Below are positions 3,448 through 31,925 of a stretch of DNA of 64,000 nucleotides, piece by piece. Under the pieces are notes generated by a model. It was not told the origin of the DNA. It saw only the letters and a program-made list of their open reading frames with translations, and did not search any database. The stretch is from Limisphaerales bacterium. Its GTDB lineage: Bacteria; Verrucomicrobiota; Verrucomicrobiia; Limisphaerales; JAKEEH01. The position numbers and the translations under genes were made by a program. The DNA lies in assembly GCA_022616725.1 (NCBI GenBank), contig JAKEEH010000149.1:4664-68663 (forward strand). Direction: 5' to 3'. Every line of letters starts with the position of its first letter. Position 1 is the stretch's first letter.

Positions 3448-5642
3448 CAGTGGTTAAATAGAAACTCGCGGCTGCTAAGCACGGCCCAGTAAATGTCCTC
3501 CAGCGCCTGGCGCCTTTCCCTTTCGGGTGCTTCGCTCAATGCTCGGGTGAGCTTTTCCTTCTCGCCCTCGGTTGGATAGCGCGCGAGCGCGCTAAGGTAC
3601 AACTCCTCAATTGCTTTCTCCGGAGGTGTTTTGTCGGCCAGGAGCTTCTCAACACGATTGCCTTTGGCGGTCAGTTTTTTATTCAACGTGTCGCCATTTG
3701 TAATGTGGAGCACTTGTGTGACGCTGGATTCGTCCGCCCGCTCGCACTCACACGTTTTCTCGCGGTCGGGGCGCCCGAACGATTTCAGAAAGTAGGAATC
3801 CACGTTCGAATCCGGCAACTGAAGTGCCCGCCACCCTTCCGGGTAGCCCTTGAACTGCGTGAGCGCGCCAGTCACCTGAGACAGCGTGTCAAGCAACACT
3901 TCAGCCATCATGCGTCGCGGGTAGTAACGCGAGTAAAAGCGCGTGTCGCCCGAATTTTCCGGCAAGGCGCGGCTCGTGCGCTGGTAGGCCTCAGATTGCA
4001 GGATCGCCCGCATTAACGCCTTAAGGTCGAATCGCCTCTCCGTCAAAAACCTGGCGGCCCCACTGAGCAACTGCTCATTGCTGGCTGGATTCGTGACCCG
4101 CAGATCATCGACCGCTTCGACCAAACCTACTCCAAAGAAGTTCGCCCAAATGCGATTCACAATGGCCCGTGTGAAATACGGATTGTCGGGCGACGTGAGC
4201 CACTGCGACAGGGCATGCCGGCGGTCGCCTTCGTCATCGATCGGCAGCGGCTGGCCTTCCAGCGGCCTGGGCGGCTGCGGTTTGCCGCGCAGCGGCTGGA
4301 CAACATCTCCCCGGTTGGCCACAAAGATCACATTTTCACCGTCACTTGACCCGGACTTCTTTCGCACTCGGGCAAACAGATTGGCGAAGCCGAAATACTC
4401 GTCATTCGTCCACTTCTCCATCGGATGGTTGTGGCATTTGGCGCAGTTGATTGACATGCCGAGGAACGCCTGCGACGTGGTCTCGGCCATTAGCCGCGGG
4501 TCTTCGTGCAAGACGAAAAAGTTCGCGCCGCCGTTCTCGAGCGTGCTGCCCTGAGCCGTCATGATGTTGCGGACCAACACATCCCAAGGCGTGTTGGCCG
4601 CGACATTGTTGCGCAACCAGCGATAGTAAGACCACATGGCAGCGGGCTTAAGGCTCTTGCTCTGGACCAACAGAAGGTCAGACCATTTGTAGGTCCAGTA
4701 ATCGACGAATTCATCGCGCTCCAGCAGCGAATCTATAAGGCGATCTCGTTTGTCGGGGCTCGAATCCGACAGAAACTCGCGCGTCTCCTTTGCCGTCGGC
4801 AGGACGCCCATGGTATCTATGTAAACGCGGCGGAAAAGCTCCTCATCAGACGATCGCGGCGACGGCGGCAAGTTGAGAGTCTGGAGTTTTCGGTTGACAA
4901 ACTCATCGATAAAGTTTCGCTTTGGCGCCTGGGCAAACACTTCCGCGCTCACACTGTTTGTGAACGGCACCGTAATCGTCGCCAACCCGATCCGGCTGAG
5001 ATACCAAATTGTTACCGCCCCCTCCCCCTGCCCCATGACGTTCACGCTCCCGGCTTCATCGACCTGCGTGACGGCTGCGTTTGCATCTGTGTACTTAGCC
5101 CAGCGGGTGACGTCTTCCGTGTGACCATCATTGAAGAGGGCGCGCACGGTGAGTTGCTGGGCGCCACCCGGCTTTAGGACCGCATGCGCCGGCGTAACTT
5201 CTATCCGTTCAATGCGTGGATCATCCTTTCGCGGGCCGGGAGCGCCGGAAGCGATCCAGTCCGAAAGGATTTTATATTCAGGCGACTCCGTATCGAACTT
5301 CTTCCCTCCTTTGTGCGGCACTGCGCCTGTTGGCTTGAGCAGCATCAAGCTGCGGCCGGGATCACTCGGAATGATGCGCCGGCCGAGGGCGTGACGCGTC
5401 AACGCAATATAATCCCCTTCGTCGTCGTAGCCGCGCAGCGACAACTTGAATCCATTCTGTCCCGCCGCGGCGCCGTGGCAGGCGCCGGAGCTACAACCGA
5501 ATTTGGCAAGGATTGGCTGAACCTGATTGCGGAAACTGGGAGCGGTATTAGTCGGGGCTTCGGAAGAGAATCCGACTCCGACCACGGCCGTAAATAAGAA
5601 TGTTGCTAGGCCTCGAAGACCTCCGCTGAAACGCCACTTCAT
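3447..5642 (-). CDS. DUF1549/DUF1553 (PSD1) family protein with Big_2-like Ig insert
   Basis: Track ORF 3447..5927. The preferred start is the internal ATG at 5642 (MKWRFSGGLRGLATFLFTAVVGVGF), 4 nt after the stop of the DUF1501 gene. Motifs: SGACHGAAAGQNGFKLSLRGYD, IERIEVTPAHAVLKPGGAQQLTV (Big_2-like), CAKCHNHPMEKWTNDEYFGFANLFARV and CECERADESSVTQVLHITNG. All are typical of this PVC family. Confidence 0.85.
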   Translation of the reverse strand: MKWRFSGGLRGLATFLFTAVVGVGFSSEAPTNTAPSFRNQVQPILAKFGCSSGACHGAAAGQNGFKLSLRGYDDEGDYIALTRHALGRRIIPSDPGRSLMLLKPTGAVPHKGGKKFDTESPEYKILSDWIASGAPGPRKDDPRIERIEVTPAHAVLKPGGAQQLTVRALFNDGHTEDVTRWAKYTDANAAVTQVDEAGSVNVMGQGEGAVTIWYLSRIGLATITVPFTNSVSAEVFAQAPKRNFIDEFVNRKLQTLNLPPSPRSSDEELFRRVYIDTMGVLPTAKETREFLSDSSPDKRDRLIDSLLERDEFVDYWTYKWSDLLLVQSKSLKPAAMWSYYRWLRNNVAANTPWDVLVRNIMTAQGSTLENGGANFFVLHEDPRLMAETTSQAFLGMSINCAKCHNHPMEKWTNDEYFGFANLFARVRKKSGSSDGENVIFVANRGDVVQPLRGKPQPPRPLEGQPLPIDDEGDRRHALSQWLTSPDNPYFTRAIVNRIWANFFGVGLVEAVDDLRVTNPASNEQLLSGAARFLTERRFDLKALMRAILQSEAYQRTSRALPENSGDTRFYSRYYPRRMMAEVLLDTLSQVTGALTQFKGYPEGWRALQLPDSNVDSYFLKSFGRPDREKTCECERADESSVTQVLHITNGDTLNKKLTAKGNRVEKLLADKTPPEKAIEELYLSALARYPTEGEKEKLTRALSEAPERERRQALEDIYWAVLSSREFLFNH

Positions 5643-5646
5643 AACC

Positions 5647-10727: not shown

Positions 10728-11054
10728 CTACAGTCCGGCCAATCCAAGGCCACGAATCACGCGTTCAGCGATGGCCCGGCGGCGTTCGGAGGTCACCGAA
10801 CCCCGATGGCGTTTTAGATCTTTCTTCTCCGCAGCGTAAACCAGATCGCATTTGCAGAGAGTTGGCCAATCCAGGCCATCGGCCTCATCCAGAATCACTT
10901 CATGAATCTCGGGCTTGCGCAGAGCGCGCTGGGAGGAACACAAGATGACGCTGACCCGGGGTTTGAGCTGGACGCGATCCTCGGTTGCGAGAATGACTGC
11001 CGGGTGCTCGTCGGCGTCGGGAAACTTCCAGTTCCAGACTTCCCATGGTTTCAT
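10728..11054 (-). CDS. Type II toxin, MazF/PemK-like
   Basis: 108 aa. The pattern WEVWNWKFPD..HPAVILA...VILCSS...GLDWPTLCKCDLVYAAEKKDLKRHRGSVTSERRRAIAERV matches the PemK/MazF layout (W.VDF...RP.vVlS...GL...SvvlCdQirtvdk.rl...G.ls....i..al). The start overlaps the antitoxin stop by 1 nt. Confidence 0.65.
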   Translation of the reverse strand: MKPWEVWNWKFPDADEHPAVILATEDRVQLKPRVSVILCSSQRALRKPEIHEVILDEADGLDWPTLCKCDLVYAAEKKDLKRHRGSVTSERRRAIAERVIRGLGLAGL

Positions 11055-11353
11055 CAGTCCTCCCAGGACGGCTTGCCTTGAGCGGCCGCCGCGGCAGCCT
11101 CCAGGCGCTCATCACTCTTCCCAGCCCGTTTGTAGGCTTTAGAGAGCGCGCCGCGTGGCCATGGCGCCAATGTAGTAATCTGGGCCGGCGAAATTTTGAC
11201 CGATTCGCGTTCGATAACCTCAGGCAGGTACCGGCGCAGAGTGAGCCGCACGAGATTTTGCTTCTTCTGGCGTGTGCGCTTAGCGCCCTGAGCGAGCAAG
11301 TCGGCCAGGTCGTCGTCGAGACGGATTGACATGGGCGTTGAAGCCATGATCAT
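11054..11353 (-). CDS. Ribbon-helix-helix (CopG-like) antitoxin
   Basis: 99 aa. The N-terminal MSIRLDDDLADLLAQGAKRTRQKKQNLVRLTLRRYL is a classic RHH beta-strand plus two helices. It sits upstream of and is coupled to the toxin gene. Confidence 0.65.
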   Translation of the reverse strand: MIMASTPMSIRLDDDLADLLAQGAKRTRQKKQNLVRLTLRRYLPEVIERESVKISPAQITTLAPWPRGALSKAYKRAGKSDERLEAAAAAAQGKPSWED

Positions 11354-15111: not shown

Positions 15112-15396
15112 TTCCTTGGCTTGTGTCCACTCCATAAGAGCGGGTCGCCAAAAACTGGGTGCGCAACCGCAGCGCTTTGTGCTCTGCCCCGCCGTAGGTT
15201 TGCTCAGCGAGTGTTTCATTCCTTCTTACACCATATCCGCCCGATCCCGCCTCTCAATTGGGGTGTTAACCCAAAAACATTGAGGTCCCCGTGCCGGGCC
15301 GGGCCGGGCCGCAGCCGCGACACAGACGCGCGCGCCAATTGAATGCTTGACCGAGACGGGAGCAGGCGTAGTGTCGGCCAAAGGAAAGGATCAATT

Positions 15397-16458
15397 ATGA
15401 AACGACTGCTTTGCTTCAGTTGCTTTCTCGCCGGTTTCATTGGTGCATCGACTCTTCAGGCCGCCACTTCGGAAGGAAAGCTCTCCGCCGACTATGAAAA
15501 GCTCTCGAAGGAATTTGACGAGAAACGTCAGGCTTACTTCAAAGCCTACGAAAACGCGAAAACCGATCAGGAACGCGAAAATCTCCCTGTTAAATATCCC
15601 GATTCAAGAGAGTACGCCAAAAAGCTACTCGCCATGGCGGAACAGAACCCGGCTGATCCCGGCGCGCTGGATGCGCTGGTCTGGATCGTGCAGAACGGCG
15701 GCGTTTACGACCGCGAGACGGGTCCAAAAGTTCTCGCGTTGCTCAAGGAACACCACCTCCAGAGCGAAAAGCTCAAGGACGTTTGCGGCCGGCTGGCTTA
15801 CGGCTCACTGAAAGAAAGCCATGACTTTCTCCAGACTGCGTTGGAGAAAAATCCGCATGACGACGTCAAAGGCGCGGCCGCTCTCGCCCTCGGCAGAAGG
15901 CTCCTCCAGGACAGCAGCAAGAATGGCGCGGAAGCAGAAAAATATTTCAATCTCGTCATCGACAAACACGGCAGCAAATCTCAAAAGAAAGCCGCCAGGG
16001 GCGAGCTATTTGAATTGCATCACCTCGCCATCGGCAAAGTTGCTCCGGAAATCGAGGGCCAGGACGTCGATGGCGACAAATTCAAGCTCAGCGATTACCG
16101 TGGCAAAGTCGTCGTCCTCGACTTCTGGGGTGATTGGTGAGGACCTTGCCGGGCCATGTACCCACACGAGCGGTCGCTCGTGAAGCGGTTGGAAGGCAAG
16201 CCTTTTGCGTTGCTCGGCATCAACAGCGACCCAAAAGACAAGCTCAGGCAGGTCCTCAAAAAAGAGAACATCACCTGGCGCTCGTGGTGGGACGGTGGCA
16301 ACACCGATGGCCCGATCGCGACGGCATGGAATGTTTCCGGCTGGCCGACGATCTACGTCCTCGATCACAAGGGCGTCATTCGCTACAAAGGCCCGCGAGA
16401 AAAAGCTCTCGACAAAGCCGTCGATACCCTCCTCGCCGAGTTGGAAAAAGAGAAGTAA
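15397..16458 (+). CDS. Candidate selenoprotein: periplasmic TlpA/thioredoxin-fold thiol:disulfide oxidoreductase with U-G-P-C redox motif (in-frame UGA at 16138..16140)
   Basis: Track ORFs 15343..16140 and 16156..16458 are in the same frame, separated only by TGA GGA CCT TGC CGG GCC. Read-through gives ...GKVVVLDFWGDW-U-GPCRAMYPHERSLVKRLEGKPFALLGINSD...GWPTIYVLD, the canonical FW..WCGPC...cis-Pro TlpA/ResA layout. The start is chosen at ATG 15397 (MKRLLCFSCFLAGFIGASTLQA signal peptide, aaggaaagga upstream). Confidence 0.7.
16145..16200 (+). promoter_or_regulatory. Putative bacterial SECIS element
   Basis: Upper hairpin CACGAGC-GGUC-GCUCGUG (16165..16182; 7-bp stem, GGUC apical loop) lies 24 nt after the UGA. 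It is enclosed by a lower stem CUUGCC/GGCAAG (16145..16150 with 16195..16200). The E. coli fdhF SECIS also has a GGUC apical loop at a comparable distance. Confidence 0.55.
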
Positions 16459-16625: not shown

Positions 16626-18983
16626 TTAGTCGGGATTCATCAGGTGCAGCAGAGAGCTGCGAACGGCGAGCCCGACTAAATCGTTGATAACATCGAGGAC
16701 GACGAACCGGCGCACTTGCCCCCACAGTTCGGTTTCACAGGCGGTGCCGACGTGAAGGAGCAGTGAATTGAGCATTTCGCGGGTGTCATCGCGGGCCAGA
16801 ATGCGCTCGAACCCGCGACGAATGGCCGGAAGAGAGACCTGCGCGATATTTGCGTGATTCATGATCTCAAAAGCCAGGCGCAGGAGGAGGCGCATTTCCG
16901 CGGAGGACAGGGCGGCTTCCTCAGGCAGGGTCCGATCCGTGGCACGCCGGGAGAGCAGGAGATGCAGCGCGCGAAATCGGGCTTTGCGAGGCTCCAGCCA
17001 CGGTTCGTGGCGCAAAACGCCAAGAAGGGCGCGAGCCGGGTCCGCGGGATTGGCAATGCGCGCGAGGATCGGTGTGCCCACGATGCGTTCGTCTTCCCAC
17101 CAGCCCGGCAGTTCTTCGAGCTTGCGATGGCTTTCGCGCGCCATGCGGAGATCGAATTCGCGGACCAGGCGTATTTCCCTGTGGAGATAACCGTAATTGA
17201 GCGGAGCCAGGACGGCTTTGCGCAGACGCAAAGGCAGGGGCACGAGGTCGGGAAGGGCGAGCGGCACTTCGAGCATCCCCTCGTGGCGTTCGAGCGCGGC
17301 TCGCATGCACATGTCCCACGACCCCTCAATCGAGGGAAGGTTCTCGTGCAGATTGACTCCAGCGAGCAGGGAAATCGCGCTGGTATGGGTCACCTCCCGG
17401 TTCAGCAGAGGGGTTAGCCCGTGGCGGCTGGCAAGGCTGTAGAGGAAGTCGTAAGCGCTAATCTGTTGTTGCGCCTTGGTGGCCGACCACGAGGCAAATT
17501 GAGAGCGCGTGCATTGCCAAAGAACCTGATGTTTCTGCGCGAGGATCGAGCCGAGGCCGGCTTCGTGGAGCGCGAACGCATAGGCGCTCTTCAGCAACGC
17601 ACGCCCACGCGGCCCCTTCCATTTCCCGTGTTCCTGCTCCAGCTCCCATGGCTTGAGATGGGCGGGACCCCAGCCAAAGAACTCTGGCGCGACACGGTGG
17701 AGGGCGGTAAAGGAGGAGACGCCAAACCGGGACAAAATATTGGGAGAGACCTCGTCGAAAAGCCTGGCCCAGCGGCGGAACGACCGGGCCACTTCGTAAT
17801 TGAGCTCACCAGATTCAGTGAAGAGTTGGGGCTCGGACGCCCGGACTCGGTCGAGAACGGCACGGGCAACCCGGTCGAGCACCTCCCAGATAGCCTGGTA
17901 ACTGTCGTGACGGACGCGCTGTGGGGTCGCCGAGACTTTTCCAACCAGTTCGGGGGGGAGATTGCCAGCGCCAATCTGATTGAGACACCGCACCAACACA
18001 GCCCGCCAGTCGAGCAGACCGCTTTCGCGCATCAGGGACGGGGGAACACGGACGCCGAGTGACAGGAATGCGTCTTCCCAATCCGTGCGCCCAAACGCAC
18101 CGATGTTCCAGCGGGGCTGGCCCTGGTCGATGGCGACAAGCCGCAGACCATACTTGATCTGCCAAAGCGCTGCATTGATCAGCATCTCGGCGGCGCGCTC
18201 ATCGGTGAGTTCCTGCCGGATCGCGAGTTTCCATGGTCGCACCGGCGGGTCTTCGCCCTGGGTGATGCCGGGAAACGCGACTTCAGCAACGGCGCTCGGA
18301 CGGATGAGACGAAAGCCCGTGCTCTTGAGGAGGTGCCGCAAATCGGCGTTCTCGATGTCGCCACAGGTGCGCAAACCGAATTTTTCCAGGAGGAGGTAAC
18401 GTAGGTAAATCGGGGCCCGCCGGTCGAAGATAAGCCGTTTGGCGGCGGAGAGAGTATCCAGCGCGACGGGCAAAGCGGCATGTGAAAGCGGACAGAGCAG
18501 CGACTTCGGGTAGGAGCCGAGAAAACCCGCGACACCGGGCCTGACGCAGTACCATGCCGTGAGGATCAGAAGTTTATCGTAATGCCCGCTTTGCTGGACA
18601 TTGCGGATGCCTGCCAGGGCTGCGGCGATGCGAAAAACCCTCTCAAAATGCGGAATTTCGGCCTCATCACCGTCGGTTCCGCGCAAGTGCCGATATTGCG
18701 CTTCGGCGGAAGGGAAGCGACGGGAGATGGCGCGCGCGTCCTCCAGTAGTGCAGGGTCGAATTCCGGCAATCGCATTCGGGCGCGAGCGGCGTCGGCTTC
18801 CGGCGAAATCGTGGATGGGATTGCCCAGGTGCGGACGTAGGGAACGTCCGCGAGTGGTGGTCGGCATGCCGGTTCAGCCGCGGCCGGGGGCGAAGCGGGT
18901 GGCTGGGCCAATTCAACAGCCGAACGGGTGTCGTACGAGCCCGCCGGCTGGACTTCATCAGATTCGGTCCACACGGTAGTCAA
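16626..18983 (-). CDS. Large hypothetical protein (785 aa), no recognisable catalytic motif
   Basis: This is the longest ORF across the interval, and the other frames give only short GC-type ORFs. It is Arg/Leu-rich and has a Pro/Ala-rich N-terminal linker. Several helix-hairpin-helix-like stretches are present (FGLRTCGDIENADLRHLLKSTGF; SRFGVSSFTALHRVAPEFF). No Walker A, nuclease or transposase signature was seen. Confidence 0.55.
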   Translation of the reverse strand: MTTVWTESDEVQPAGSYDTRSAVELAQPPASPPAAAEPACRPPLADVPYVRTWAIPSTISPEADAARARMRLPEFDPALLEDARAISRRFPSAEAQYRHLRGTDGDEAEIPHFERVFRIAAALAGIRNVQQSGHYDKLLILTAWYCVRPGVAGFLGSYPKSLLCPLSHAALPVALDTLSAAKRLIFDRRAPIYLRYLLLEKFGLRTCGDIENADLRHLLKSTGFRLIRPSAVAEVAFPGITQGEDPPVRPWKLAIRQELTDERAAEMLINAALWQIKYGLRLVAIDQGQPRWNIGAFGRTDWEDAFLSLGVRVPPSLMRESGLLDWRAVLVRCLNQIGAGNLPPELVGKVSATPQRVRHDSYQAIWEVLDRVARAVLDRVRASEPQLFTESGELNYEVARSFRRWARLFDEVSPNILSRFGVSSFTALHRVAPEFFGWGPAHLKPWELEQEHGKWKGPRGRALLKSAYAFALHEAGLGSILAQKHQVLWQCTRSQFASWSATKAQQQISAYDFLYSLASRHGLTPLLNREVTHTSAISLLAGVNLHENLPSIEGSWDMCMRAALERHEGMLEVPLALPDLVPLPLRLRKAVLAPLNYGYLHREIRLVREFDLRMARESHRKLEELPGWWEDERIVGTPILARIANPADPARALLGVLRHEPWLEPRKARFRALHLLLSRRATDRTLPEEAALSSAEMRLLLRLAFEIMNHANIAQVSLPAIRRGFERILARDDTREMLNSLLLHVGTACETELWGQVRRFVVLDVINDLVGLAVRSSLLHLMNPD

Positions 18984-26360: not shown

Positions 26361-28388
26361 TTACTGGCGCTGCGTCATCAGCCTTGGCAGCGATTTTTCA
26401 TGATCGGTGAGCTCAAATAATACTAGAGTGTCGGACCGGTGTAAAATCGGGCTTTGCTGTAACAATCTTTCCAGCGCTTCGCGGGCATAGGTGCTGTAAG
26501 CGTCGATTTTCCCATAAAGAGGAAATCGTGCGTTCCACGCGGCGGGCAAATCTTTCACGCCGGCGCTCACATGCCGGTTGTTGTTCATCAGTACGTAACG
26601 AACACCCCAAGCTCGAAGGAAGTGCGCTAATTCCTGAGGCGGGGCGCCGGCAGGAAACTGCAATAATGGGTTGACCAGACCGGGTTCTGTGACCGTGAGG
26701 ATACGATTGCGAGAAAAGTCCAACTGAAACGGAGCAACGACCCACGCTAAAAGCGGTTCCCCGCGAACTGTATGAGCCTGTATCTCGCGCCATCGTTCCG
26801 AAACGGGGCGGCTGAAAACATAATGATTGTGATCCAGATAGCCCTGGTCAAATGGGAAGGCGAGCTGATTGCGAGCCTGCACCAATTGTTCGACTCGCCT
26901 GAGAGTGACAGGTGCAAACGCAACGATCACTGTCACGAGGAGCGCCGCCGGCGCCCATTGACGGGCTCGTAACCGAAGGTCCAGCCGTTGCGGCGGCAAG
27001 GGGGCATCTGCGTCTACTGCCACTTTCGCGACCCGACGTTGTAAGATCGCCGCCACAGATGTGACTACGAGCGGAAATACCGCCAAAAAAATCGGACATG
27101 TGTAACGAACTCCGGTCGGGCCGTCGAACAGGTGAACGTTAATTAGAAATGCTGGGAACGCTGCCGCTGCGGCGGGCAAGGTTGCGAGCAGCCATGAGGC
27201 ATCACCCAGACAAGCCCGTCTCCGAAAGAGCAAGCCTAAGCCCACCAGGCCAGTCGCGCCAAGCAAAGCACCAAGGAACGTGTAGTTGATCTGATTCCCC
27301 CCATAAAGGAGTTCTCGAGTCGACCATAGGCTTCCGATGTCCCTGGCCCAAATCGACGGATAGCGGGCCGCGAGCGGATTAGTTGAATTGTTCAACTCCG
27401 GCCCGGTGCCATAGGTCGTCAACAACACAACGAGCCACGGCAGCAACGTCGTTAAGAGGATCACGGCAATCGAACAACCCAGCCGCATAACTTGGGCGGG
27501 CCGAGCAATCGACAAAAGCGCCGCCAGGAAAACAGCCACATACAAGCTCGCAAAAAAACCGAGCGTCGTTTTCAACGCGATGAGGCTCGCCGCGAACAAG
27601 CCCAAAGGAACGGCGCATTTCCATAAATCCGGACTGCCATCCGACTGCAAGGCCTTTACAAGGAACGATGATGCCCACAATAATCCGGCTATCATGGCCG
27701 TTCCCGAATAGAGCGGTGAGACGTTCACACACTGCGGATTGACCGAGACGAACGTCGCCACGGCCAGCAAGGCAAGGCCGCACCCCAGATTTAATTGACG
27801 CGCGGCGGCCACAATCATCAAGGTGGTGAGACCAAAGCAAAAGACTGCATCGAATCCGTTGACATGCGTAATGGGAAGCCGGAGCAACACAAAACCTTGA
27901 AAATACGACTGCGCGCCAAATCCATCCGGACCGAATCCATCCATCGGATTGCCAGCCAGCGTTCCTGTCCCGAGCATGCGCACAGGACGCACCAGGTAAG
28001 TCATGAAATCGTCGGCGATATTAAATGCGGCGCTGGGCATCGTGAGCCAACACAAGCAGCCCGTCAGCAGCAAGGCTGTCAAAACCGGGGCCAACTGCCG
28101 CCAGGAGAAGCCCGCAACCCACGCAGAAAAGCAAACAGATCCCGAACGGACCGACTTTAGGCCGAAAATGGCTGCCAATAACAAACCACCCAAAACCAAA
28201 CTGTAGAGTGAAGGTCGCGTCGCCGCCTGAACTGCGTTTAAGATACCTCCGAAAAAGGCGAGCACCGCGAGTCCCAACATCATGTCAAACACTGCCGGTA
28301 TCTGCGTGCGACCGTAGCAATACCGCCTCAGGAGCGTGCCCCAGCCGTAACACACAACGCCAAATGCAAGAATGAAAATGAAAGCCAT
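26361..28388 (-). CDS. Large polytopic membrane protein (675 aa) with soluble C-terminal domain
   Basis: More than 12 hydrophobic segments span residues 1-470, followed by a hydrophilic domain of about 200 aa. The architecture resembles ArnT/GT-C-like enzymes, but I could not identify a diagnostic motif. Confidence 0.65.
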   Translation of the reverse strand: MAFIFILAFGVVCYGWGTLLRRYCYGRTQIPAVFDMMLGLAVLAFFGGILNAVQAATRPSLYSLVLGGLLLAAIFGLKSVRSGSVCFSAWVAGFSWRQLAPVLTALLLTGCLCWLTMPSAAFNIADDFMTYLVRPVRMLGTGTLAGNPMDGFGPDGFGAQSYFQGFVLLRLPITHVNGFDAVFCFGLTTLMIVAAARQLNLGCGLALLAVATFVSVNPQCVNVSPLYSGTAMIAGLLWASSFLVKALQSDGSPDLWKCAVPLGLFAASLIALKTTLGFFASLYVAVFLAALLSIARPAQVMRLGCSIAVILLTTLLPWLVVLLTTYGTGPELNNSTNPLAARYPSIWARDIGSLWSTRELLYGGNQINYTFLGALLGATGLVGLGLLFRRRACLGDASWLLATLPAAAAAFPAFLINVHLFDGPTGVRYTCPIFLAVFPLVVTSVAAILQRRVAKVAVDADAPLPPQRLDLRLRARQWAPAALLVTVIVAFAPVTLRRVEQLVQARNQLAFPFDQGYLDHNHYVFSRPVSERWREIQAHTVRGEPLLAWVVAPFQLDFSRNRILTVTEPGLVNPLLQFPAGAPPQELAHFLRAWGVRYVLMNNNRHVSAGVKDLPAAWNARFPLYGKIDAYSTYAREALERLLQQSPILHRSDTLVLFELTDHEKSLPRLMTQRQ

Positions 28389-28527: not shown

Positions 28528-29715
28528 ATGTCAGTGGCGTTGAACAGTGACGCGCTTCCCGCAACGGCAAAGTCACCGCAGCCTAACGGCAACGGGGCTG
28601 AGTTCGCCGACGTCGTTCGGCGTCCGCACACAGGCGCCTTTCAACTGATCCGCGAAGTCCTGCAACACGGCGGACCAGGCTATCTGCAGTTCGCCATCAC
28701 AAACATCTGCAACGCGAAATGCGATTTTTGCGGGTTTGCCGTGGATCGGTTTGATCCCAAACAGCGCCGCAGCGTCACACTGCAAGAAGCCAAGGACGTC
28801 ATCGACATCGCGAAGCGCAATCACATCGGGTACTTGCTTTTTGTCGGGGGCGAACCGCTCGTGCACAAGGACCTTCGCGCGATGGTGCGCTACGCCGCCG
28901 AATCGGGCATTCACCCGATGATCTGCACCAATGGCTCGCTCTGGACGGACCAGAACATGCGCCATCTCGCGCGCGACGGGTTGAGCAGCGTCATCATGTC
29001 CATCGACTCGCACGATGTGGCGCGCCATGAGAAGAACCGCGGCCTTCCCGACGTATGCCGCAAGATCAAGCACGCCAACGAAGTCTTTGCTGAACTCGGG
29101 ATCCAGACGACGGCCAGCGTCACCGCCAGCAAGTTGATCGACGATTATGACAAACTGCCCGCGTTCCTCACGGAGTTGGGTTTTCGCAGTTGCACTTTCA
29201 GCTATCCGCTGACCAGCCTGGCTTCGAGCTATCTCAGCTTCAGCGACTCAAGCCTCGTCAGCTACAAAACCGAGGAACTGATCCAGGTTTTCGAGAAGAT
29301 CAAGCAGATGAAACGCCGGAGCGGCTTTCCGGTCGTGAACCCGACGGAGTCGCTCTCCGAGATGCAACGGCACTTGCGCAAGGAACCGGAGAAGTTCGGG
29401 TGCCTCGGCGGACACAAGTACTTCTACCTTGACTGGAACTTGAATCTTTATCGGTGCCATTTTTGGGAAACCCCGATGTGCAGCATCTATGAGTTCGACC
29501 AATCGAAGCTCATTCGCGACGGCTGTACCCGCTGTATGATCGACTGCTACCGCGATCCCAGCGTTCTCCAGTTCGTGGCTGTTAACGCCAGCGACGCGTG
29601 GCAGGACTTAAAACGGGGCCGCATCATTTCCGCCGCCCGGCGTGTGTTCGATTCGCGTAATCTCACGTCGTTAAAGGCCGTTTGGGAAGACCGGAAGTGG
29701 ATCGGTAAAGTGTAG
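28528..29715 (+). CDS. Radical SAM enzyme with Cys-rich C-terminal (SPASM/twitch-like) region
   Basis: 395 aa. ITNICNAKCDFCGF is the CxxxCxxC radical SAM cluster motif, with GGEPL downstream. The C-terminal cysteines are in GCLGG...YRCHF...MCSIY...GCTRCMIDCYRD. Confidence 0.85.
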   Translation: MSVALNSDALPATAKSPQPNGNGAEFADVVRRPHTGAFQLIREVLQHGGPGYLQFAITNICNAKCDFCGFAVDRFDPKQRRSVTLQEAKDVIDIAKRNHIGYLLFVGGEPLVHKDLRAMVRYAAESGIHPMICTNGSLWTDQNMRHLARDGLSSVIMSIDSHDVARHEKNRGLPDVCRKIKHANEVFAELGIQTTASVTASKLIDDYDKLPAFLTELGFRSCTFSYPLTSLASSYLSFSDSSLVSYKTEELIQVFEKIKQMKRRSGFPVVNPTESLSEMQRHLRKEPEKFGCLGGHKYFYLDWNLNLYRCHFWETPMCSIYEFDQSKLIRDGCTRCMIDCYRDPSVLQFVAVNASDAWQDLKRGRIISAARRVFDSRNLTSLKAVWEDRKWIGKV

Positions 29716-29999
29716 CTGACGCAGGAAGCGGTTTTCAGGGCGGCATTCAGTCCCTCCTCCGACTCGTTGTAAGGACTTCGGTCGAGCGCCGACTGACTGA
29801 CGCAATGCGCAAATCAAATGCCTTTCTGGATGTGGTGGTGAAGCAGTTCGTGGCGACACCGCGCATTTCGGCAGGCGGGGCGGAGTTTCACGCACTCGGT
29901 GGGGTGCGCTATCCCCAGCGCGCCGCAGGGGATTCTGCCAGGGAAGATTGGACTGAGCACTGCGCGAACGAGCCGTTTTCTCCCTGCGGCGAAGCTCGA

Positions 30000-30989
30000 A
30001 TGCTTTGGACGCTCGGTGCGCGACTCGCCGCATGTTTGCTGGCCTTGTGGCTGTCGTTGCCCGGGCAGGCGGCAGTCCACGAAGTAGGCGGCGTCGGTCT
30101 AACTGTGGGTGATTTGCCGCGACAGATTGAGTTTTACACGAACGTTCTTGGATTTGAACTTGTCAAGCAAACCGAAACCGATCCGGGCACTTCCGCCGAT
30201 TTGTTCCAGGTGCCGCGCAATCGCGCCAAAGTCGCAGAATTACGCCTCGGCAACGAGCGCATTACGTTGACAGCTCATTCGCGCATTGGCCGGCCAATCC
30301 CGCCCGACTCACGCAGCCACGACCACTGGTTTCAACACATCGCTATTGTCGTCCGCGACATGGATGAGGCGTATGCGCACTTGCGCCGCCACAACATCAA
30401 GCACGTTTCCACCGCCCCGCAGACGTTGCCGGAGTGGAACCCGAACGCGGGCGGGATCAAGGCATTTTACTTCCGCGACCCGGAGGATCATGTTTTGGAA
30501 GTCATCTGGTTCCCGCCGGGCAAAGGCGATCCGAAGTGGCAGAAGCCAACTCGCCGGCTTTTCCTGGGGATTGACCATACAGCCATCGTCGTGTCCGACA
30601 CGGAGCGGAGCCTGCGGTTTTACCGGGATGAACTGGGAATGCGCCTTGTCGGGCACAGCGAGAACTACGGTGTCGAGCAAGAGCATCTCAACCAGGTTTT
30701 CGGCGCGCGCCTGCGCATCACCGCGCTGCGTGCCGAGTGTGGTCCCGGGATCGAGTTCCTGGAATACATTGCCCCACCCGGCGGACGCCCGCTCCATTCC
30801 GATGCGCAGGCGAACGACCTCCTCTTCTGGACAACCGAATTGCTGGCGGACTCGACTGAGTATCGCGAGGCGAAGCGGTTGACTCCACGCCTCGTGGACA
30901 CCCTGGGCGGACGCGTCGCGATACTCAGGGATCGGGATGGACATGCGTTGCGCGTGCGAGCAACGAACACAGCCCTTTCTTCAAGATAG
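30000..30989 (+). CDS. Secreted VOC (glyoxalase/bleomycin resistance/dioxygenase) family protein, two tandem VOC modules
   Basis: Track ORF 29805..30989, with the start chosen at ATG 30000 (MLWTLGARLAACLLALWLSLPGQA signal peptide). It has two beta-alpha-beta-beta-beta modules (GLTVGDLPRQIEFYTNVLGFEL; IDHTAIVVSDTERSLRFYRDELGMRL). Confidence 0.8.
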   Translation: MLWTLGARLAACLLALWLSLPGQAAVHEVGGVGLTVGDLPRQIEFYTNVLGFELVKQTETDPGTSADLFQVPRNRAKVAELRLGNERITLTAHSRIGRPIPPDSRSHDHWFQHIAIVVRDMDEAYAHLRRHNIKHVSTAPQTLPEWNPNAGGIKAFYFRDPEDHVLEVIWFPPGKGDPKWQKPTRRLFLGIDHTAIVVSDTERSLRFYRDELGMRLVGHSENYGVEQEHLNQVFGARLRITALRAECGPGIEFLEYIAPPGGRPLHSDAQANDLLFWTTELLADSTEYREAKRLTPRLVDTLGGRVAILRDRDGHALRVRATNTALSSR

Positions 30990-31010
30990 AGCGAAACAAA
31001 TGAACAACCC

Positions 31011-31925
31011 ATGAGAACCACAACACTACTGATATTCACCACACTGACATTGGCCGGCAGTCTTCTGGCCGACCATGCGCCAGGGCATAGAGTCCTCGTG
31101 CTGAAAAATAAGCAAGGCGCGGCGATTCTCGGCTACGACGCGGTCGCTTACTTCACTGATAACAAAGCCGTGAAGGGTAATCCGAAATTCCAATCGCGAT
31201 ACGAGGGCGCCAATTATTACTTTGTCTCCGCCGAGCACAAAACCTTCTTCGACGCCAATCCTGCCAAATACGTTCCGGCTTACGGCGGCTACTGCGGCTA
31301 CGCCGCGAGCATTGACCGGCTGTCGCCGATCAGCCCCGAGTGGTTTCAGATCATCGACGGCCGGCTGATCCTGCAACACAACAAGAAGGCTTATGACAAG
31401 TTCAACGCCGACCTGAAAGGAAACATCATGAAAGCAGACCACTACTGGCCCGGGCTGGTTGTGCGAAATGGTACCGGCGGCAAAACCCTTGTGTTCACGA
31501 ATAAGAGGGGCGTGGCGCTCGAAGGTTATGACCCGGTCACCTACTTCGCCAACGGCCAGCCTGCCAAAGGCGACCCGAAAATCGAAGCCACCTACAACGG
31601 TGCGCTCTATCATTTCATTTCCCAGGAGAACCGCGAGACTTTTGAGAAAAGCCCGTCCAAATACGCTCCGGCTTACGGTGGCTACTGCGGTTACGCGGCC
31701 AGCATCGGCAAGGTTCGTCCGGCCAATCCGCTGCTCTGGTCCATTGTGGATGGACAGCTCATCGTGCAACACACCACCGGCGCCGTGGACCTTTGGAATA
31801 AGGATGTCAATGGTAATAAAGCCAAAGCCGACGCCCATTGGCCGAGGCTTGTCGAACTGAAGGCCGGCAAGAAAAACCCCATCGACAGCCTTCTCGGAAA
31901 ATCCGTCCTGGCGAACGCTCAATAA
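31011..31925 (+). CDS. Tandem YHS-domain protein
   Basis: 304 aa with a signal peptide. Two modules of about 140 aa are clearly homologous, each with GYD.V.YF....KG.P......Y.G..Y.F.S.E....F...P.KY.PAYGGYCGYAASI. Confidence 0.8.
   Translation: MRTTTLLIFTTLTLAGSLLADHAPGHRVLVLKNKQGAAILGYDAVAYFTDNKAVKGNPKFQSRYEGANYYFVSAEHKTFFDANPAKYVPAYGGYCGYAASIDRLSPISPEWFQIIDGRLILQHNKKAYDKFNADLKGNIMKADHYWPGLVVRNGTGGKTLVFTNKRGVALEGYDPVTYFANGQPAKGDPKIEATYNGALYHFISQENRETFEKSPSKYAPAYGGYCGYAASIGKVRPANPLLWSIVDGQLIVQHTTGAVDLWNKDVNGNKAKADAHWPRLVELKAGKKNPIDSLLGKSVLANAQ

Follow-up and report, generated by a model that had tools for sequence, protein, structure and literature searches.

A predicted selenocysteine-containing TlpA-like oxidoreductase with an in-frame UGA in a Limisphaerales bacterium, and its relatives in Verrucomicrobiota and Planctomycetota

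Known UxxC selenoproteins and the Limisphaerales gene

In terms of described relatives, a thiol-disulfide isomerase-like selenoprotein was predicted from the Sargasso Sea metagenome in 2005 (PMC1088965), and this type is listed as cd02966/UxxC in Table 1 of a 2026 review of prokaryotic selenoproteomes (PMC13188914). A Prx-like thiol:disulfide oxidoreductase and a thiol:disulfide interchange protein have been reported as selenoproteins of Deltaproteobacteria (PMC1794560; PMC13188914), and Planctomycetes carry selABCD together with split thiol-disulfide-isomerase candidates for selenocysteine (Sec, U) (PMC4807772), including the planctomycete P1 candidates termed "thiol-disulfide isomerase-like thioredoxin" (PMC4807772, S9 Table). 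Here we analyze a 64,000-nt stretch of DNA (hereafter the window) from contig JAKEEH010000149.1 of a Limisphaerales bacterium (Verrucomicrobiota; assembly GCA_022616725.1), in which a gene on the + strand at 15397..16458 is interrupted in frame by a UGA. At a probability of about 0.9, we take this gene to encode one selenoprotein in which the first active-site cysteine is replaced by Sec, because the UGA is conserved in place of the Cys codon of homologs, the hairpin that follows it is frozen in sequence, and an ortholog in a second member of the Verrucomicrobiota lies beside selC and selD. A preliminary description of the locus had referred to UxxC thiol:disulfide oxidoreductase-like selenoproteins as a known class, and the four reports cited above bear this out.

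The predicted protein resembles the Sargasso Sea protein (compared by description; representative MGB1650493.1) in its TlpA-like fold, in having Sec first in UxxC, in its widespread Cys homologs, and in a selenocysteine insertion sequence (SECIS) located in the coding region just downstream; it differs in carrying an extra helical N-terminal domain of ~185 aa and in belonging to a clade of Verrucomicrobiota and Planctomycetota with a frozen 18-nt hairpin. With the P1 candidates, whose source genomes carry selABCD, it shares a host from the Planctomycetes-Verrucomicrobia-Chlamydiae (PVC) group and an annotation that divides it between two neighboring genes. The Cys homolog nearest to those candidates is from Singulisphaera, and our homolog scan also returned a Singulisphaera Cys-form. 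Whereas bSECISearch gave no SECIS for the two P1 candidates (again compared by description), the hairpin of the present family is strongly conserved. Like the deltaproteobacterial selenoproteins, the protein has a UxxC motif in a thioredoxin fold of AhpC-TSA/Redoxin type and a predicted redox function, but those proteins, by their description, come from other lineages, have other architectures, and have no helical N-terminal domain described. The ResA-like WAxxUGC protein (NF041054), a UGC-containing TlpA family selenoprotein, likewise combines a ResA/TlpA-like fold with an active-site Sec; the motif here is WGDW-U-GPC rather than WAxxUGC, and the protein is not a member of that family. Fold and active-site geometry are also those of the extracytoplasmic reductases TlpA of Bradyrhizobium, ResA of Bacillus, and CcmG/DsbE of E. 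coli, which are Cys enzymes and are without the additional N-terminal domain.

The sole interruption of the frame 15397..16458 is the TGA at 16138..16140, which stands at the first Cys position of the thioredoxin-fold motif (FWGDW-U-GPC). Two open reading frames (ORFs; 15343..16140 and 16156..16458) belong to this one frame and are set apart only by the TGA and 15 nt, as the preliminary description had it. Read through from the ATG at 15397, the frame gives 353 aa, in which VVLDFWGDW is followed by the UGA and GPCRAMYPHERSLV and, farther downstream, by the cis-Pro motif GWPT; the longer read-through context is KVVVLDFWGDW-UGA-GPCRAMYPHERSLVKRLEGKPF...GWPT. The features of the gene, in window positions and all on the + strand, are as follows.

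15397..16458, + strand: complete coding sequence of the predicted selenoprotein, a single frame of 353 sense codons and a TAA stop, with UGA-248 read as Sec
15383..15390, + strand: putative Shine-Dalgarno-like sequence GGAAAGGA, 6 nt upstream of the ATG at 15397, as read from the DNA
15397..15465, + strand: probable Sec-type signal peptide MKRLLCFSCFLAGFIGASTLQAA, with a basic n-region, a hydrophobic core, and an A-x-A-like end, as read from the translation
15466..16020, + strand: predicted N-terminal all-α domain (about aa 24–208), from the structure model of the Cys homolog P0002
16030..16386, + strand: TlpA/ResA/CcmG-like thioredoxin-fold domain (Pfam AhpC-TSA, aa 212–330), from Pfam, structure, and sequence matches
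16138..16140, + strand: UGA, predicted Sec248, at the N-terminal (nucleophilic) position of U-G-P-C; TGA in 57 of 57 distinct Sec-forms and TGC/TGT in Cys-forms
16147..16149, + strand: TGC, Cys251, the predicted resolving cysteine of UxxC; Cys (TGC/TGT) in 57 of 57 Sec-forms and invariant among aligned full-length homologs
16165..16182, + strand: candidate SECIS hairpin CACGAGC-GGUC-GCUCGUG, with a 7-bp stem and a GGUC loop; its synonymous sites are frozen
16345..16347, + strand: codon for the cis-Pro of the thioredoxin fold (G-W-P-T); P317 does not vary among the aligned homologs

The expectation that gene callers would split or truncate such a gene is borne out by the public annotation (CDAJKU010000105.1, GCA_973961485.1), in which it is called as two products of 247 and 100 aa. 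About half of the confident genes of this genome terminate in UGA, its commonest ordinary stop codon; the genetic code is therefore standard, and any recoding would be local. A global reassignment of UGA was considered and is ruled out by the same figure. Long open flanks surround 82 in-frame TGA sites of the window, and only the one at 16138 stands in a recognizable thioredoxin-fold active-site context.

Conservation of the UGA and of the hairpin

Homologs were sought with a protein query in which U was substituted by C, and the best 120 database matches were considered. The full-length Cys homologs among these matches are 332–614 aa long, whereas 40 of the 120 are proteins of 236–249 aa that span only the first 61–70% of the query; all 16 of the short matches that were read terminate in ...DFWGDW, despite an identity to the query of only 51–58%. 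A scan of loci with one genome per species of the Genome Taxonomy Database (GTDB) yielded 79 loci and 57 distinct Sec-form sequences from species representatives of Verrucomicrobiota and Planctomycetota. The codon at the Sec248 column is TGA in all 57, and the in-frame sequence that follows it reads [G/P]-P-C and then PHERSLVKRLEGKPF. TGC or TGT occupies this column in L013, L044–L048, L056–L058, L065, L074, and L075, as well as in the full-length database homologs. The proposal that the TGA sits at the first redox Cys is thus supported at the level of the family, and in the ortholog alignment that the preliminary description had suggested, the column carries either TGA or a Cys codon, with coding conservation continuing downstream.

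The Sec-form is carried by Verrucomicrobiota, by Planctomycetota (Gemmataceae, Isosphaeraceae, Pirellulaceae, and Planctomycetaceae), and by a few oddly labeled metagenome-assembled genomes (MAGs). Six loci (L006, L013, L028, L031, L053, and L076) have a PVC-type gene in MAGs labeled Akkermansia muciniphila, Actinomycetota, Alcaligenaceae, Armatimonas, or Bacteroidales, which suggests mis-binning or mislabeling; one of them, L006, is nearly identical to the locus of a Pedosphaera MAG (L007). Tandem paralogs were also observed. A Gemmataceae MAG (L012) has three (1857, 3118, and 4353), each with an in-frame TGA and an identical hairpin, and a Planctomycetota MAG (L030) has two with an in-frame TGA (1789 and 3115); these arrays point to local expansion of the Sec-form.

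Taken alone, the window sequence would be weak evidence, since one point mutation turns TGC into TGA, and it is the comparative data that carry the significance. A pseudogene or a sequencing or assembly error, that is, a single change of TGC/TGT to TGA in an ordinary TlpA-like gene of this genome, would require one substitution, in a family of which Cys-forms exist and in a sequence that comes from a MAG. Against such a change stand the recurrence of this TGA in dozens of species representatives (57 distinct sequences), purifying selection that continues downstream of it, an independent Logan assembly that has the identical truncated product, and the selection on the hairpin at synonymous sites that is described below. 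By these comparisons the explanation is largely refuted, and we regard it as exceedingly improbable.

The same alignment bears on the reading that gene callers adopt, in which the UGA is a genuine stop, a 247-aa helical protein ends in ...FWGDW, a 100-aa fragment starts at the ATG at 16156, and the hairpin serves coupling or mRNA stability. Predicted in exactly this form by gene callers, it accords with UGA as a normal stop in this genome and with a nearly universal ATG at 16156 (Met in 56 of 57 sequences). However, of the five codons that lead from the TGA to this ATG, positions 1 and 2 are conserved and third positions vary (entropy 0.6–1.7 bits), and this coding pattern of variation shows that they are translated; the supposed 15-nt spacer encodes [G/P]-P-C-R-A, including the resolving Cys. 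Across the 57 sequences the codon-position pattern runs on over the TGA, with coding conservation on both sides. No purine-rich Shine-Dalgarno-like motif precedes the ATG at 16156, where the upstream sequence reads ggaccttgccgggcc. Moreover, half of the thioredoxin fold would be missing from each fragment alone, as would the redox motif, and the Cys-form homologs are single full-length proteins. Termination at this UGA is, on these grounds, very improbable.

The hairpin begins 24 nt after the UGA, and its 18 nt are almost invariant across the 57 Sec-forms, third codon positions included, while the flanking codons vary freely. Of the six third positions in the hairpin, five have an entropy of 0.13–0.37 bits and the one at the stem base has 0.87, against 1.1–1.9 bits for most flanking third positions in four- and six-fold degenerate codons. 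Codon usage was evaluated on the 50 sequences that encode HERSLV and set against the codons that these genes use for those amino acids at other sites. Arg is CGG in 50 of 50 (20% of Arg codons elsewhere), Ser is TCG in 55 of 55 (21% elsewhere), and Leu is CTC in 54 of 55 (41% elsewhere), and a conserved Arg five codons downstream of the hairpin uses five different codons. Because synonymous codons are frozen in the hairpin and free elsewhere, the constraint is selection on the RNA and not on the protein. In the alignment of distinct Sec-forms 93.9% of the stem cells are paired, and the loop G and the loop U are each kept in at least 55 of 57 Sec-forms. The 18-mer occurs once in the window, where 0.10 matches are expected at three or fewer mismatches, and a search at that tolerance found no further copies in the window.

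The apical loop begins 31 nt after the UGA, which falls inside the 16–37 nt range of loop distances used by bSECISearch. With its short distance from the UGA and its small GpU-containing loop, the element thus has the form expected of the stem-loop of a bacterial selenoprotein gene. In the SECIS of E. coli fdhF the loop is also GGUC, with G23 and U24 as the SelB determinants (PMC8659212), and there, too, the hairpin lies within the coding sequence downstream of the UGA. A lower stem in which the hairpin was said to be nested (CUUGCC at 16145..16150 with GGCAAG at 16195..16200) does exist in this sequence, and both it and the 7-bp hairpin appear in the minimum free energy fold; however, it is not conserved, with 72.6% pairing over 56 distinct sequences, no better than shuffled controls, and it was dropped as part of the element.

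The Cys-forms provide a contrast. The Sec-forms read H-E-R-S-L-V with fixed codons, whereas the Cys-forms mostly read HE[RK]ELV and have no hairpin, and four Cys-forms match the amino acid pattern of the hairpin region (L045, L070, L013, and L048). In Singulisphaera sp. GP187 (L045), which retains HERSLV, the hairpin has decayed through synonymous changes (CGC, TCA, and GTC) and pairs at five of seven positions; L070 (YEKSLV) has a decayed hairpin that likewise pairs at five of seven. From this contrast it follows that the hairpin is maintained only where the UGA is present. L013 (3118) and L048 (3115), which are TGC Cys-forms, have the exact 18-nt hairpin intact, which suggests recent changes from Sec to Cys that left a fossil SECIS.

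Selenocysteine genes in relatives

The association with Sec machinery is seen in a Verrucomicrobiota MAG (L049), where tRNA-SeC(tca) at 4232..4326 and selD at 4354..5418 lie directly downstream of a short-form ortholog. This ortholog consists of a signal peptide and a thioredoxin domain with the motif FWGFW-U-GAC, without the helical domain. The selD gene beside it (TIGR00476, 361 bits) has an in-frame TGA of its own, in the motif SCAG-U-AAK. Together with the ortholog comparison, this adjacency supports the earlier proposal of one protein of ~353 aa with a Sec-containing TlpA domain. Sec genes are also found at two further loci: L086 has selD-selA, and L088 has selB, an Rdx-family gene, selD-selA, and then a transglutaminase-core gene. 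The neighboring DUF1501 and transglutaminase-core genes suggest that MAGs of the L086/L088 type are of PVC origin. The selB/Rdx/selD-selA/transglutaminase-core arrangement has been described for a planctomycete, and selABCD has been reported in Gemmata and Isosphaera (PMC4807772).

Hairpins of comparable geometry follow the UGA in these selD genes. In L086 the hairpin is CCAGC-GGUC-GCUGG at +13 nt; in L049 it lies at +25 nt and combines an 8-bp stem with a GUU loop. Planctomycetota also have a second TlpA-like Sec family, more distant and with the motif WGS-TGA-VGC (L079 2032 and L082 3064); its 7-bp hairpin differs in sequence (UUGGUCA/UGGCCAA), has a GUU or GGU loop, and starts at +27 nt. 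The same geometry therewith recurs with different sequences, as a hairpin that has a small G-U loop and follows the UGA by ~13–27 nt.

Two side observations concern the annotation of these genes. The 120 best SelD relatives (P0121–P0240) are nearly all 310–329 aa long, and three inspected SelD loci, including L086 (TGA 5971) and L088 (TGA 5965), have an in-frame TGA that precedes the called start by ~10–20 codons; gene callers thus appear to cut off the N-terminus of Sec-containing SelD systematically. In L088, a 52-aa Rdx (SelW-like) ORF at 5486..5644, between selB and selD-selA, may be another truncated selenoprotein.

Several results weigh against the assignment of Sec. A tRNA scan of the window found none, and no selA, selB, selC, or selD was found in the window or in contig positions 23.6–100.3 kb, the ~77 kb of the 125.6-kb contig that were annotated with Pfam. 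A homolog search with SelD led only to other MAGs. The hairpin, described initially as fdhF-like, matches the E. coli fdhF element in being a hairpin with a GGUC loop, but not in spacing, since its stem starts 24 nt rather than 11 nt after the UGA; nor does its perfect 7-bp stem have the bulged U17, or the element a conserved lower stem. The fold of the single sequence lacks significance (z = −1.42; an equally good fold is seen in 15 of 200 shuffles), and no Rfam family reaches its gathering threshold anywhere in the window, where the matches near the site are at chance level (E up to 10). RNAalifold and pair counting detected no compensatory covariation, because the hairpin is invariant, and synonymous-site statistics were used instead. 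Two Sec-form outliers (L053 and L059) keep the TGA and have no obvious hairpin, and in five others (L032, L034, L047, L052, and L060) the hairpin is weakened. These five form a Planctomycetaceae subgroup that reads HEKSLV, and in them an alternative hairpin, UCGUGCG-AUGCUGC-CGCACGA, can form at +11 to +32 from the TGA, nearer the UGA.

The missing sel genes in the ~77 kb searched, the 24-nt spacing, and the missing bulged U would also suit a UGA that is read through without selenium, by near-cognate insertion of Cys or Trp or by other recoding, with the hairpin as a generic stimulator of read-through. On the other side, the recoded site is exactly that of the redox Cys, the defining mark of Sec/Cys pairs; the GGUC/GpU loop agrees with both the SelB determinants (PMC8659212) and the SelD hairpins of related MAGs; and the L049 ortholog adjoins selC and selD. 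Read-through of this kind is accordingly judged very unlikely, and insertion of Sec at UGA-248 is the reading that we retain.

Predicted protein, mechanism, and meaning

In terms of family, the U>C query matches the Pfam models AhpC-TSA (78.7 bits; cutoff 26), Redoxin (58.9 bits; cutoff 26.6), and Thioredoxin_8 (46.9 bits; cutoff 27) above their cutoffs, and falls below those of the NCBIfam models for the TlpA equivalog NF047696 (58.5 bits; cutoff 230), ResA NF002854 (60.5 bits; cutoff 170), and the WAxxUGC selenoprotein NF041054 (37.4 bits; cutoff 300). The protein is thus a member of the TlpA-like superfamily (cd02966) without a dedicated model, and equivalogy with TlpA or ResA is not reached. 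As a stand-in for the window protein, its closest full-length Cys relative, P0002 (54–56% identical), was modeled with AlphaFold2. The model folds first into ten helices, followed by a thioredoxin fold (predicted local distance difference test score (pLDDT) 93.6; predicted template modeling score (pTM) 0.86). Foldseek matches it to ResA, TlpA-like, CcmG/DsbE, and other extracytoplasmic thiol-disulfide oxidoreductases at target-normalized template modeling (TM) scores of 0.80–0.88, and a comparison at the sequence level ranks 3kcm, TlpA (1jfu), and ResA as the best solved relatives. The helical domain has one weak match, to HEAT_EZ (E = 0.0012, below cutoff), and the top 50 PDB matches of the P0002 model are all thioredoxin-fold proteins, with no all-helical fold among them. 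The sequence has both the U/CxxC motif expected at the N-terminus of helix 1 of a thioredoxin fold (U-G-P-C) and the cis-Pro loop (G-W-P-T), and the signal-peptide-like N-terminus suggests an extracytoplasmic location.

In the mechanism that we propose, the product would be an exported 353-aa protein in which a signal peptide and an all-helical N-terminal domain precede a TlpA/ResA/CcmG-like domain with U-G-P-C. By the established bacterial mechanism, the hairpin downstream of the UGA at 16138 would act as the SECIS: a SelB·GTP·Sec-tRNA(Sec) complex would bind the GGUC loop through GpU, so tethering the Sec-tRNA at the ribosome as the UGA enters the A site, where insertion of Sec would compete with release factor 2 (RF2). 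After export, and by analogy with the family, Sec248 would occupy a solvent-exposed nucleophilic position and attack a substrate disulfide, Cys251 would resolve the mixed selenenylsulfide, and a membrane donor such as CcdA or DsbD would supply the electrons to reduce the Se-S bond again. Choice of the substrate or a partner is probably the task of the helical domain. We infer Sec insertion, export, substrate, and electron donor alike from such analogies.

The remainder of the window contains several genes of separate interest. Directly downstream of the selenoprotein gene and convergent with it lies a large ORF on the − strand (16626..18983; 716–785 aa) without a Pfam match, and a second large ORF without a Pfam match (675 aa) is found at 26361..28388 on the same strand. 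A small PemK-like toxin gene with an adjoining 92-aa partner (10729..11333, − strand) probably forms a toxin-antitoxin pair. A radical SAM gene, a glyoxalase-family gene, and a gene for a protein with two YHS domains stand in a row at 28528..31925. The last of these (31011..31925) had been linked to the selenoprotein gene through a YHS family said to have Sec-containing members; it lies 15 kb away, has two YHS domains and no TGA, and the link was given up.

The gene is a mis-annotated addition to an established predicted class, the UxxC TlpA-like selenoproteins, and it leaves the understanding of Sec decoding unchanged. Its less usual aspects are that the clade is so broad and abundant in the PVC group, that the hairpin is frozen across two phyla, that Sec paralogs occur in tandem, that there are fossil SECIS elements, and that no annotation model exists. 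A distinct and abundant PVC-specific clade of exported selenoproteins, defined by the helical N-terminal domain and a U-[GP]-P-C TlpA domain, often with tandem Sec paralogs, with a SECIS whose 18 nt are frozen in both phyla and with no NCBIfam or Rfam model, is a possibility that we put forward tentatively, at somewhat less than even odds. The family also offers a clear case of an RNA element that constrains protein sequence, in that Sec-forms read H-E-R-S-L-V and most Cys-forms H-E-[RK]-E-L-V, and it provides examples of fossil SECIS elements after reversion from Sec to Cys.

For the organisms concerned, the protein would add an exported redox enzyme with Sec as its nucleophile. The gene is split or truncated in the public record and in no fewer than 40 database orthologs, and no NCBIfam or Rfam model would rescue it; counts of selenoproteins in Verrucomicrobiota and Planctomycetota, two phyla abundant in soil, freshwater, and groundwater, are therefore too low. 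If the PVC-specific clade proposed above is real, the frozen hairpin would represent the consensus that SelB recognizes in these two phyla and could seed the discovery of further unannotated PVC selenoproteins.

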